64,000 nucleotides of DNA from Eledone cirrhosa (taxonomy: Eukaryota), in NCBI GenBank assembly GCA_964016885.1, contig OZ024753.1:40424001-40488000 (forward strand). The letters run 5' to 3'. Positions 2,825-47,110 of this stretch are shown here, in pieces (positions within the stretch are counted from its first letter, which is position 1; every line of letters begins with the position of its first letter). Position numbers and translations under genes: made by a program. The notes beneath the pieces are model-generated. The model was given only the letters and a program-made list of their open reading frames with translations. It was not told the DNA's origin and ran no database searches.

Positions 2825-3042
2825 ATAGATGGGTAAACGGTGCTGATGATAGCTAACAAGCTTGAAACTAGTACATCGTTCCTGTGTCAGTGTTGAACAA
2901 AAAGGTGACGTGGTTGCCTTAACACCGTATGGCATAAATTCAGGCTGTTCGCTTTGTTGACAAACAAACGAACAAAGCGGCCGGCGTTATAATAAACGTC
3001 GACTAAACTGATGCGTGCATATATGTATGTGTACCTGTATGC

Positions 3043-3076
<34 letters not shown>

Positions 3077-3129
3077 GCATGCTACTGTACGTCTGTATAC
3101 ATATATGTATGTACGTATACATACATACT

Positions 3130-3130
<1 letters not shown>
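2825..3130 (+). mobile_element. TA-embedded HHR-bearing element, family A (Penelope-like remnant)
   Basis: Reverse-complement homolog of 6683-7000, flanked by (TA)n and starting with an HHR. Confidence 0.7.
2836..2880 (+). ncRNA. Type I minimal hammerhead ribozyme
   Basis: AACGGTG-CTGATGA-tAGCTaacaAGCTt-GAAAC-ta-GTA-CATCGTT: helix I, intact core, helix II, palindromic helix III (ACTAGT) and a GUA site. Confidence 0.85.
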
Positions 3131-3171
<41 letters not shown>

Positions 3172-3237
3172 AATGGAAGTTTAGTAAAATCGAAGTTTTG
3201 GCTGTGGCCAAGCTAAAGGCCATGTCACCTTAGAGTA

Positions 3238-3427
3238 ATAACTGTTTCTACGTTAGGCACAAGGCCAGCAATTACCCAGTGCATTACTGGTATTTTATTT
3301 TATCGACCCCGTAAAGATGAAAGGCAAAGTTAACCTCGGCGGGATTTAAACTCAGTAGTATGGCAAGGGCCGTAACACTATGCGTCAAAGCATGGCGTCC
3401 GACCCTTTACCAATACTGCCAATCCAC
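3238..3427 (-). mobile_element. tRNA-headed SINE, major family
   Basis: A-box TGGCAGTATTGG, B-box GAGTTTAAATCC and central GCCTTTCATC..GGGGTCGATAAAAT domain, with more than 20 homologs in the window. Confidence 0.9.
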
Positions 3428-3545
3428 ATTAGAGTAATAACATACGTTAGATAGCTTGACAAATTGAAAACTGCGACAGGTGAGCACAGCCACATGGAAG
3501 CAAAGCAGCGAAAAAACCAATCAGGTCTGGATGAAGAAACATATA

Positions 3546-3760
3546 TCATCATCATCATCATCATCATCGTTTAACGTCCATATTCCACGCTTGCATGGGT
3601 TTGGACGGGAGTTTTCCCACTTGAGGCAAGAGTGGTTGTCTTACTCGCATAGGACTGTCTGGCGGGTTTTCCACGGCTGGATGCCCTTCCTCAACACCAA
3701 CCACATTTACAGTGTGGAACTGGGAGGTTTTTACCGTGTTACCTACACGGCCAAATTACA
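3546..3760 (-). mobile_element. RTE-related non-autonomous element
   Basis: (CAT)n tail, then gtttaacgtccatattccacgcttgcatgggtttggacgg...ggctggatgcccttcc. An opposite-orientation copy lies at 3865-4020. Confidence 0.65.
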
Positions 3761-3798
3761 GCGTGGACTGTGTGTTTTTATATATAGCGATATAGATA

Positions 3799-3860
3799 TA
3801 GGAACAAGTAAGACACCGACGGCTGAGCTCAAGCCGTTTCGACGGCTAATTCTGGACTGA
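3799..3860. mobile_element. Family B palindromic element, single arm
   Basis: taggaacaagtaagacaccgacggctgagctcaagccgtttcgacggctaattctggactga, nearly identical to the arm at 27028. Confidence 0.85.
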
Positions 3861-3864
3861 ATGA

Positions 3865-4020
3865 AAAATATATCCAGCTGTAAAAATTACAGCCAAATTA
3901 CAGTCCGTCTGAGCAAGATACGGCGCAGCCAACTGGCTAGACTTGGAGACCCGTCCAACCCATGCAAGAATGGAAAAATAGACATTAAGCTGTGGTGATG
4001 ATGATGATGATGATGATGAT
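3865..4020 (+). mobile_element. RTE-related non-autonomous element with (GAT)n tail
   Basis: ccagctgtaaaa...cccgtccaacccatgcaagaatggaaaaatagacattaa followed by (gat)n. Confidence 0.6.
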
Positions 4021-4358
4021 ATATGTATAGGCGCTCATCGTTTCTGTTATGCATCAGTCAGGTTTGGCAATGGTGACATTTATTTGAGATGTTTACTACT
4101 GAAACTAGACATGTGAGTGCAGGGGTGATCTAATTGTGTCTAATTACAGTCTTTACACTTCCCGACCTTAAACGTCACTAGTAAATGGCATGCTCTCGCA
4201 CCCCCACCACCAACATATACATACAAATACTTAAAGTGACTGACCATATGTACTGTATGTGTACGTGTACATGTGTGTGTGTGTGTGGCTGTGCGGCTGC
4301 AACTGTGTGAGATTGTAATTCTGTCTTCGTGAAAGTAAGGTATTATGCATGCATGCAA

Positions 4359-4412
<54 letters not shown>

Positions 4413-4499
4413 ATATGTATATATATATACACATGCACATATATGAGAAGTTAAGGCTTTATGTACGTATGTATATGTAAGCAAGTATAAATATATATA

Positions 4500-4575
4500 T
4501 ATATGTATATAATGTGTCTGAGAGTGTATTTGTGTGTGTGTGTGACGTTAAGGCGTTATGTACGTTTACAAGTAT

Positions 4576-4619
<44 letters not shown>

Positions 4620-4656
4620 ATATATATGTATATATATGTGTATATATATATGTATA

Positions 4657-4687
<31 letters not shown>

Positions 4688-4756
4688 GTGTATATATATA
4701 TATATGTGTGTGTGTGTATATATATATATATGTGTGTGTATATATATATATAGGTG

Positions 4757-4839
<83 letters not shown>

Positions 4840-4970
4840 GTGTATATATATATGTGTGTATATATATAGGTGTGTGTATATATATATATATGTGTATATA
4901 TATATATGTGTGTATATATATATATATGTGTATATATATATACATGTGTATATATATATATATATATATA
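4500..4970. repeat. (TA)n/(TG)n compound microsatellite
   Basis: Direct reading. Confidence 0.95.
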
Positions 4971-5899
4971 TTTGACTATTTATATTTATATGTTTGACTA
5001 TTAATATTTATATATACGTATGTATGTTTTGAGTTATAATCAGATTCATCTTTTCGGAATTGAAACTCGTATGAAGCAAAATGACGACGTTTTTCTTTGA
5101 TTGAAGATAGTTGGCGGAATGTGCAGATATGCGAGTGAGACTGTCTGTGTTTATACTAATGTAATTGTAGGTACAGGCATTGATATTAGTAGAAATATCT
5201 CTTTAGTACACGTGAATTTAGAATACCTAGATATTTTTTCTTGTTTTTAGAAATAACTTGTATTTCTTTGAGCATCTTTTAATCATCTTGAATAAAGTAA
5301 GGGCACGTGAAATAATGTAATCCTAGATACACTATGTCTAGGGAACCAAGAGGAGATGTTTAAGGGTTGAATGAGTTTGAATATAGTTCTTTTCAATCAT
5401 TGCTGAACTGGGTTAAGCAACAAGAACAAAAGCAACATTATCTACAGCATTATGATTCACAAATGGGGTCTCAGATCTTGTCCAACGATTCAAATCAAGA
5501 CTGAGTTGTAATTAAACAGCAGCTATAAATACATGAATTATATAAAACTTCATGAATTCTGAATGGTAATAGTGCTGCTATTGAAGGTGTATCTATCAAA
5601 TAAATTCTGTGGTTAATATATTCTGTAGAGAAGAGAAAAATGTCCAAATTTATAGATGATGATTGGGGTTTGACATTTCCCAGTAGACAATAGAAGCAAC
5701 GATAAGTTTAATAATGATATATCGTTCAGTGTCTCTCAGGAGAAATCAGGTTCCGTGCGAATAACCTATTCAGCAGAGAACTATCTTCATCCTTCAGCCA
5801 TCGATCATAACTGAAGGAACATTGGTTAAAATCTGAAACAGAGAATCTAATTCAATGAGTTCTCCCTGGATATAGAATGTAATGGACTGAGATAAAAAG

Positions 5900-6435
5900 A
5901 ATAGTGGGTTGAAAGAAGGATAGTTCATTGGCAGGAAGAAGGTAGTGTATTGGCAGAAAGACGGCGGCAGTGTATTGGTAAAAAGTGGTTGTGCAGTGAC
6001 TTGGCAGAATGAAGGTAGAGTATTAACATAAAGTGGCCAGTGTATTAATAGAAAGAAGGCTGTGGGTGAAAAGGAGAGCTGTTAATTGGCAGCGATTGGG
6101 CAGTGTATTGGTAAAAAGGGGGCAGTGGATTCATAGAAAGTGGATTGTGGATTGTCAGAGAGAGGATAGGGGTTAATTGGTAGAAAGAGTGCCGGGAATT
6201 CGTTAAAAAATATGGGCGGTGGGTTAGCAGAAAGAGGGTGTGGATTGGCCGAAAGTGGCATAGCTTATTGTAAGAAAGGGAAACAGATTGAAAAATGTCG
6301 CAGAGTTGGCAGAATTAATAAATCATCAGAAAAAATGTCTTGCTTTATTTCTTCTAGTTATTTACATTTTGAGTTCAAATCTTGTTGAGGTCAACCTTTT
6401 CCTTTACGGCTTGATAAAATATTGTACCAGTAAAA
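5900..6435 (+). repeat. Degenerate ~22-bp minisatellite of the SINE head followed by an old SINE body
   Basis: Repeated variants of GGCAGTGGATTGGCAGAAAG, then gagttcaaatcttgttgaggtcaacc...gataaaatattgtaccag. Confidence 0.6.
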
Positions 6436-6584
6436 TAGTGAGGTTGATATAATCGACCTTTCCATCTTCCACCCAATTTCTAGCTTTAAAAATGTTAATC
6501 ATACGCTTTCGTTGTCTTACCTCCTTGGCAATATGTTTAAAGATTTTTCTTTCTGTTATAATAGAGTAGAGATCAGTTATGAAA

Positions 6585-6654
<70 letters not shown>

Positions 6655-6682
6655 TATACATATATATATATACATATATATA

Positions 6683-7000
6683 TAAATGGAAAAAATGAAA
6701 CGAAATTTCACTTATCACTCTTAGTACGGCTGTTACTTAAATATAAGTATGTATACATACATATACATATATGTATACAGACGTACAGTAGTATGTATAT
6801 ATATACATACATGCACACACATATATATGTACGTATGGATTTACCGAACATTTATTATAATGCTCGGTTTTTTTGTAAACAAACAGCCCGAATTAAGCCG
6901 TACAGTGTTTAGCAACCATCGTTGCCTTTTTGTTCAACACTGACAAAAGAACGATGTACTAGTTTCAAGCTTATTAGCTATCGTCAGCACCGTATACCTT
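6683..7000 (-). mobile_element. Family A HHR element
   Basis: Homolog of 2825-3130 and 42750-42900, with (TA)n on both sides. Confidence 0.75.
6950..6993 (-). ncRNA. Type I minimal hammerhead ribozyme
   Basis: Reverse complement reads ACGGTG-CTGACGA-tAGCTaataAGCTt-GAAAC-ta-GTA-CATCGT. Confidence 0.85.
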
Positions 7001-7027
7001 CCTGCCAGATTGTTGAACGTATACATG

Positions 7028-29477: not shown

Positions 29478-29545
29478 TTTCTTCAGGACTAGAACTGTTT
29501 CATTCAGGAGAAGTCATCAGGGCTTCCTGATGATTTCTCCCGAAT
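29478..29545 (-). ncRNA. Family F HHR core with a mirrored 5' half
   Basis: Reverse complement reads CTGATGA-cttctcctgaat-GAAACAG-ttctagtc-CTGAA. An inverted second CTGATGAtttctcccgaat lies on the + strand. Confidence 0.7.
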
Positions 29546-42749: not shown

Positions 42750-42900
42750 AACGGAAAAAATGAAACGAAATTTCATTTCCCACTCTTAGTACGGCTGTTA
42801 CTTAAATATAAGTATGTACACGTACATACATATATGTATACAGACGTACAGTAGTATGTATATATATATACATACATGTACACATATATATATGTACGTC
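42750..42900 (-). mobile_element. Family A element, distal part
   Basis: Matches 6683-6835. Confidence 0.75.
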
Positions 42901-42902
42901 TG

Positions 42903-42935
<33 letters not shown>

Positions 42936-46699: not shown

Positions 46700-47110
46700 T
46701 ATGTATACATATAAAATCAGGGAAAGAGAGGGAGAAAATTAGTGAGAGAAAAAGAGACCGAGAAAGATGAAATTAGAAGAAGAAAAATTAGAATATTGAG
46801 CATTAAGGCTGTCGTAGCAGAAGTTAGCGTGAAATACAAATTGGGGTTTAAAAGGTCAAAATATGTGGTACTGACCTTGGATTGTAGAGAGCTGAAGACA
46901 TGATTTTCAGCTCTCTACAATCCAAGGTCAGCACCACATATTTTGACCTTTTAAACCCCAGTTTGTATGTTTGTATTTCACGCTAACTTCTGCTACGATA
47001 GCCTTAATGCCCAATATTCTAATATTTCTACTTCTAATTTCATCTTTCTCAGTCTCTTTTTCTCTCTCTAATTTTCTCCCTCTCTTTCCCTGATTTTATA
47101 TGTATACATA
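46700..47110. repeat. ~410-bp near-perfect palindrome pivoting on CTGAAGA
   Basis: ~200-bp arms with a few mismatches and one small indel, around a 9-nt loop gacatgatt. Confidence 0.92.

Follow-up and report, generated by a model that had tools for sequence, protein, structure and literature searches.

What kind of element carried two hammerhead motifs into this part of the Eledone cirrhosa genome, and would they cut RNA where they now lie? The motifs sit in a stretch of 64,000 nucleotides (assembly GCA_964016885.1, contig OZ024753.1, positions 40,424,001 to 40,488,000 of the forward strand), referred to here at its full length as the window. We put at roughly 80% the probability that both are canonical type I hammerheads within solitary, 5'-truncated copies of a non-coding family of 430-500 bp with more than 13,000 motif copies (family A), likely a retrozyme pasted into (TA)n by the reverse transcriptase (RT) and endonuclease of a Penelope-like element (PLE) and predicted to cut mainly as a dimer. 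An earlier note on this DNA had described the motifs as intact minimal hammerheads of the PLE type and as the best candidates for active ribozymes in the window.

Both motifs were found at the positions given there, and their parts can be laid out as follows:

2837-2879, plus strand: hammerhead 1, type I; helix I 2837-2842/2874-2879, CUGAUGA box 2843-2849, GAAA box 2864-2867, U·U 2850/2863, loop 2 2854-2859, palindrome ACUAGU 2867-2872, predicted cut 2873/2874
6993-6951, minus strand: hammerhead 2, type I; CUGACGA box from 6987, U·U 6980/6967, palindrome 6963-6958, predicted cut 6957/6956, distal helix I extension kept

A structural descriptor run over the window matches exactly twice, at these two motifs, while the same descriptor applied to 300 local shuffles gave a single match in two of them and two matches in none. 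The core boxes are complete in both hammerheads, as had been claimed, and the core nucleotides C3-A9, G12-A15.1, U16.1 and H17, together with helices I-III and an open helix I, bear out the assignment to type I. The hammerheads are identical at 41/43 positions and differ only at N7 and in loop 2, whereas 96/139 alignment columns are identical in the 3' flanks of the two copies if gaps are scored as differences (Fisher p=2e-4); the flanks have thus diverged more than the motifs, as the note had observed. Two of its other terms do not fit. The motifs are not borne out as intact, given that U·U stands in both where a Watson-Crick pair (usually G-C) is expected at 10.1/11.1 and that the first copy is missing part of helix I. 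Nor are they minimal, since helix I of 6 bp followed by an internal loop and a distal stem, helix II of 4 positions with a 6-nt loop, and helix III of 1 bp with a palindromic tetraloop make up the canonical type I architecture. It is this form (helix I 6 bp, helix II 4, helix III 1-2 bp with a palindromic loop) that is called canonical in PMC4209133. The minimal PLE hammerheads described there resemble family A in being type I, in their palindromic 15.2-16.2 region, in their presumed action as dimers and in their association with PLEs, but they have a helix II of 7-8 bp, a helix I of 4-5 bp, an extra base between 9 and 10.1, a G10.1-C11.1 pair and a location in pseudo-long terminal repeats (pLTRs), and the window motifs show none of these. 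Aligned to Rfam HH9, the motif reaches 18.7 bits against a gathering score of 52, with pair 10.1/11.1 flagged. No hammerhead appeared among the 150 of 389 matches listed from an Rfam scan of the whole window, nearly all of which were sub-gathering matches to microRNA families on microsatellites or hairpins, and a repeat search of the window was likewise dominated by microsatellites.

The motifs belong to a very large family. A 35-letter pattern with U at 10.1 finds 13,000 exact matches in the 3.0 Gb searched (control 0), and 99 of the 100 first listed read as U·U. Without U at 10.1 the pattern finds 751 matches (control 0), and about 87 of the 100 first listed carry C·A and none G-C; these define a subfamily, A3. 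Members of A3 (L069-L078) combine C·A at 10.1/11.1 with GUU at the cut, and a competing hairpin over the GAAA box leaves their predicted helix II pairing at ~0.37. A recurrent 6-nt deletion that takes out helix III and the cut site was seen in 4 of 100 listed matches, including L249. Family A units are apparently non-coding, 430-500 bp long and arranged in tandem with one type I hammerhead each. Spacing is 472-530 bp in subfamily A1, with up to 11 units per arm and one array (L031) of 8 + 5 units placed head-to-head, and 427-434 bp in subfamily A2. No PLE protein match was found inside the units. A sister family, G, with 9,587 pattern matches (control 2), is homologous to family A over the whole unit (466-469 bp), forms arrays of up to ~30 units (for example L124-L133, C1:5738327-5752335) and has the same loop 2 and ACUAGU, with G10.1-C11.1 at the base of helix II. 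Judged by its sequence, family G is a better candidate for an active ribozyme than family A.

On the features tested, family A belongs to the animal non-LTR retrozymes (LTR, long terminal repeat). At the family level the units repeat in tandem, are a few hundred bp long and contain a type I hammerhead each, the window copies being sub-unit solos, and as in the metazoan retrozymes of PMC7229834 the units are apparently non-coding and tandem with one canonical hammerhead each, low in GC and predicted to form a highly self-paired circle, with PLEs alongside. The unit is longer than the 170-400 nt given in that paper, although retrozymes of up to 972 bp are reported in a 2026 preprint (10.64898/2026.07.22.740005), and the available text of PMC7229834 does not describe the fixed 3' points at (TA)n or the head-to-head arms of family A. 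Non-LTR retrozymes are further characterised by expression as linear and circular RNA. Each of its two unusual features has a counterpart in the axolotl, where HHR_Amex1 has a 1-bp helix III with a palindromic tetraloop and HHR_Amex2 has U·U at the base of helix II; as monomers they cleave 6% and 22% per hour, respectively, and both do much better as dimers (PMC7229834). The U10.1-U11.1 variant is moreover noted as tolerated in PMC3088659. Family A differs from the axolotl hammerheads in joining both weak features in one motif and in having a subfamily in which C·A replaces U·U. Type I hammerheads in animal retrozymes, their dimer dependence and the U·U variant are already known; the papers listed by our literature searches included none on this repeat family and none on C10.1/A11.1 hammerheads, and for cephalopod retrozymes only PMC8557442 was listed.

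How such units enter the genome can be read from their ends. We classed the ends by position in 61 loci with 85 arrays, taken from the 100 first-listed U-pattern matches (60 stretches plus L033). A single hammerhead per strand is present in 41/61 loci and two or more on the same strand in 20/61, and in 36/61 an inverted piece abuts the 5' end. While the 5' ends are scattered over the unit, the insertions being 5'-truncated, the 3' ends lie at two fixed points, E1 (31) and E2 (29), in 60/85 arrays; among the others, 17 could not be resolved within the TA-rich tract of the unit itself and 8 are at other positions. A (TA)4+ run occurs within 30 nt of 67/85 3' ends, against a background of 16% of window positions, and family G ends at the homologous two points. 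The window holds three fragments of this kind:

2827-3133, plus strand: copy 1, 5'-truncated and sub-unit, ~307-311 bp of a ~490-bp unit, young subfamily A1, 3' end at E1 beside (TA)n
3134-3170, no strand: (TA)n tract that adjoins copy 1 at its 3' end, likely the target site
6687-7020, minus strand: copy 2, 5'-truncated and sub-unit, 334 bp of a ~430-bp unit, older subfamily A2, end at E2, (TA)n on both sides
42755-42935, minus strand: third family fragment, 3' part only, no hammerhead, end at E2 beside (TA)n

The 5' flank of copy 1 (2751-2826) is likewise TA-rich, and no open reading frame (ORF) of at least 110 aa was found over 2827-3133. Region 2830-2999 of copy 1 recurs exactly in 30/30 loci (L001-L030), and among the best 40 of 507 candidates 40/40 are 100% identical over 170-171 bp, whereas copy 2 shares 94-96% identity with its nearest relatives, so that copy 1 is young and copy 2 older. 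A single inverted insertion with the two copies as its arms was considered and rejected, since the copies lie tail-to-tail, 3.5 kb apart, and belong to different subfamilies.

Partial tandems, inverted 5' copies and a microsatellite bias are features of PLE insertion (PMC8557442), and family A shows them together with 5' truncation. Non-autonomous PLE derivatives (Li, Clavereau, Pollet 2026, 10.64898/2026.07.22.740005; Craig et al. 2021, PMC8557442) share all of these with family A, as well as the many solo monomers, and the 2026 preprint proposes that animal retrozymes are such derivatives; for family A, however, no particular pLTR was found to which its sequence could be linked. The genome offers potential sources of the enzyme. 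GIY-YIG domains are abundant (150 of 10,596 candidates were scored), and there is a 938-aa frame with RT and GIY-YIG whose copies are ~98% identical and end in (AT)n. A PLE protein match is present in 8/209 sequences (208 retrozyme loci and the window). In 7/8 of these a (TA)n tract separates PLE and unit, and at L005 and L036 an A1 copy lies within the (AT)n tail of a PLE copy. In the remaining one, L128, a family G copy abuts a PLE endonuclease fragment head-to-head; the search for an autonomous partner identified none, and this fragment has only 82% similarity to the PLEs sampled and may have been inserted earlier. Judging from the insertion ends, family A is likely mobilised by a PLE. The link to PLEs drawn in the earlier note is thus probably right for mobilisation; as the pLTR of a PLE ORF the unit was found in 0/208 loci, a small sample of more than 13,000 copies.

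Hammerhead-like motifs of other kinds were also seen. At L104 the young PLE family has, as we read it, a hammerhead ~135 nt before the 3' end of the element in which C3 and G8 are replaced by U3 and A8, a core variant described in PMC4209133; helix II is closed by G-C and the palindrome is ACCGGU. The window itself carries at 29480-29530, on the minus strand, a different hammerhead-like motif with poorly formed helices, like those in the PLE-rich loci L109, L113 and L116. Another tandem repeat, of 459 bp and with a hammerhead-like core, occurs at L105 (8200 and 8659).

How far the hammerhead structure of family A is maintained can be judged from a comparison of 11 rows from A1, A2, A3 and G, which represent about four lineages. 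In this set 95.5% of cells pair, and 8/16 pairs show two-sided changes relative to the sister family (three each in helices I and II and two in the distal extension), against at most one in slid controls. The comparison with family G also fixes the register of helix II at 4 positions and a 6-nt loop. Across A1, A2, A3 and G no variation is seen in the core boxes, the palindrome, loop 2 or U1.7, with the helices covarying. Core conservation across genomic copies had been proposed as a test of activity; applied to all copies it is a weak one, because old copies decay after insertion, but between subfamily lineages, where such a test is informative, conservation holds. The palindromic helix III had further been taken to point to dimer-assisted cleavage, and here computed energies as well as PMC4209133 and PMC7229834 lend support. 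Closure of helix III in the monomer is computed to cost ~5 kcal/mol, and the dimer form comes to -16.2 against +0.6 for two monomers, which agrees with dimer use (the A2 array and hammerhead rows were excluded from the energies, as one base of GAAA is deleted in that copy).

The sequences show the family's anatomy, its copy numbers and arrays, its end structure and its covariation; cleavage, the use of dimers, circles and the enzyme's identity are inferred. The cycle that we propose would start from a multi-unit transcript of a tandem array, in which neighbouring ACUAGU palindromes would pair to give a 6-bp helix III. The paired hammerheads would cut after GUA, and ligation would turn the unit-length RNA into a structured circle. 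A (TA)n target would then be nicked by a PLE protein, which would prime reverse transcription from one of the two fixed points, ~275 and ~330 nt downstream of the cut, and synthesis would run round the circle or along an uncut multimer, yielding products that range from less than one unit to long arrays and that often have an inverted 5' arm. The window copies would be short products with one ribozyme each. Cut linear monomers were rejected as the template of reverse transcription, because 5' ends are not enriched at the cut site: raw pattern matches number 105 there and 64 at a control position, and with 15/30 and 9/30 inspected matches, respectively, turning out to be internal variants, ~52 and ~45 true ends are left. 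The genome therefore gives no sign of cleavage in vivo, and a circular template and an uncut multimeric one fit equally well.

This missing excess of 5' ends is one of several points that weigh against retrozymes cut as dimers and moved by a PLE. Among 45 GIY-YIG loci, no PLE was found to have the unit's sequence except as inserted retrozyme copies, and only 1/9 predicted retrozyme dimers cleaved in vitro (10.64898/2026.07.22.740005). The best two-strand fold, at -20.9, is another, inactive pairing that beats the active-like dimer, and with about four lineages behind the covariation each change stands for one or two events. On the other side, whole units are predicted to form similar branched and highly self-paired circles (z -11.8, -7.1 and -8.5; 30 shuffles), although the z-score of the A1 circle is inflated by an internal (TA)n tract.

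An alternative is that the motifs are, as the earlier note had it, hammerheads of the minimal PLE kind, and that they lie in solo fragments of an autonomous PLE's pLTR. The PLE-type end structure and the (TA)n targets would follow from this, some PLE hammerheads also have a palindromic helix III (PMC4209133), and retrozymes may derive from pLTRs (10.64898/2026.07.22.740005). Nevertheless, the architecture is canonical, the arrays consist purely of non-coding units, none of the 8/209 sequences with a PLE match has a unit directly continuing the PLE ORF (again a small sample of the more than 13,000), and the sampled PLE loci carry other hammerhead-like motifs, all of which makes this explanation highly improbable. 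A more serious challenge is that family A's U·U hammerhead has in effect lost its activity and that the family spreads via uncut read-through or self-promoted multimeric RNA, with the motif kept by descent or as a structural signal. The combination of a 1-bp helix III with U·U, the C·A and competing hairpin of one subfamily, the cut site without 5'-end excess and the sequestration of core bases in the predicted lowest-energy folds are all consistent with such a loss. However, the invariance of core boxes, palindrome, loop 2 and U1.7 across four groups with covarying helices would be difficult to reconcile with it, and U10.1-U11.1 hammerheads are reported to cleave, at 22% as a monomer and more as a dimer (PMC7229834; PMC3088659), so that we regard a dead ribozyme as improbable.

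A different question is whether the window copies themselves might be active when read through, either as monomers stabilised by contacts between loop 1 and loop 2 or as dimers formed in trans. Their cores are complete, copy 2 has the extended helix I, and newt type I motifs can cleave as monomers provided that they have such extensions, which they need for this purpose (review PMC6155905). Yet each copy is shorter than one unit and has one ribozyme, and since the two lie tail-to-tail on opposite strands, no transcript would hold both in sense. The 5' end lies 16 nt upstream of CUGA in copy 1 and 32 nt upstream in copy 2, so neither contains the promoter-like box that lies 89 nt upstream in other units, and neither has a dimer partner in cis. 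Part of the distal helix I strand is gone from copy 1, whose fold (-13.9, z 0.26) is no better than that of shuffles, whereas copy 2 retains it and folds (-28.8, z -3.7) much like an array copy (-28.9, z -3.4); the retained extension and the fold that beats shuffles make copy 2 the less poor candidate of the pair. In the axolotl, monomers that have one of the two weaknesses reach just the 6% or 22% per hour mentioned above (PMC7229834). Activity of the window copies thus seems rather unlikely, and with one ribozyme each they are predicted to cut probably little or not at all. They are the best candidates in the window in the sense that the descriptor finds only these two; as candidates they are poor, being solitary, on opposite strands, of different subfamilies and without a promoter-like box, and the tandem arrays elsewhere in the genome are better test substrates.

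How would array transcripts arise? In the units a 12-nt, octamer-containing box lies 89 nt (family A) or 101 nt (family G) upstream of CUGA, with a TATA-like word after it. Three unrelated U6 promoters, those of L134, L135 and the L136 cluster, have this box at -77 to -79 with 0-1 mismatch (U6 loci: 9/12 examined, in 4 of which an insertion separates box and gene), as does the best of 10 U6atac loci at -78. The box was not found in 14/14 U1 loci, in 14/14 lower-scoring U6 copies or in the other 9 U6atac loci, and its chance rate per promoter is at most 0.0011. Precedents exist, as newt and schistosome hammerhead repeats are cited in PMC2220036 and PMC6765202 as having internal promoters, and newt satellite 2 (Coats et al. 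1994, as cited in PMC2220036) resembles family A in having a small nuclear RNA (snRNA)-promoter-like block inside a hammerhead repeat. The newt promoter, however, is reported to be used by RNA polymerase II (Pol II), whereas the box of family A, with its putative promoter role, matches U6 and U6atac and not U1; the papers listed by a literature search on promoters included none on U6 promoters of retrozymes. Against an RNA polymerase III (Pol III) promoter stand the distance from box to TATA (43 nt, as compared with 48-49 in U6), the fact that the letters of the box form RNA hairpins in the predicted circles, and the T-runs of 5-7 in each unit, which should halt Pol III before the next ribozyme. 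Local alignments of U6 with the unit were, moreover, mostly not significant. The 5' end of copy 1, 30 nt downstream of the TATA-like box position, was considered as a transcription start and is treated as chance, as only 2/85 other 5' ends lie 13-19 nt upstream of CUGA.

A ~190-bp repeat lies between promoter box and start in the tandem U6 cluster copies L140, L141, L144 and L145, and the same repeat is present in the window at ~3241-3400, just downstream of copy 1. The window also contains, at 46843-46959, a near-perfect inverted repeat with arms of ~48 bp, possibly a small DNA-transposon derivative.

A tentative scenario, which we think more doubtful than not, is that these retrozymes transcribe themselves from a captured U6-type block, that a (TA)n-targeting PLE copies the RNA circle from two fixed points, and that family A has reached more than 13,000 copies with a tuned-down ribozyme (a 1-bp helix III with U·U, or C·A) beside a G-C sister. 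On their own, the two window motifs matter little, because type I retrozyme hammerheads, dimer dependence and the U·U variant have all been published. For the questions of how animal retrozymes are transcribed and which enzyme copies them, raised in PMC7229834 and 10.64898/2026.07.22.740005, the family may serve as a test system, its very young copies keeping a record of the fixed points of priming, of (TA)n as target and of inverted arms, and its homologous lineages with U·U, C·A and G-C at 10.1/11.1 forming a natural series for how much cleavage such an element needs. If the scenario is true, the promoter, the template and the ribozyme strength of an animal retrozyme cycle would become testable within one genome.

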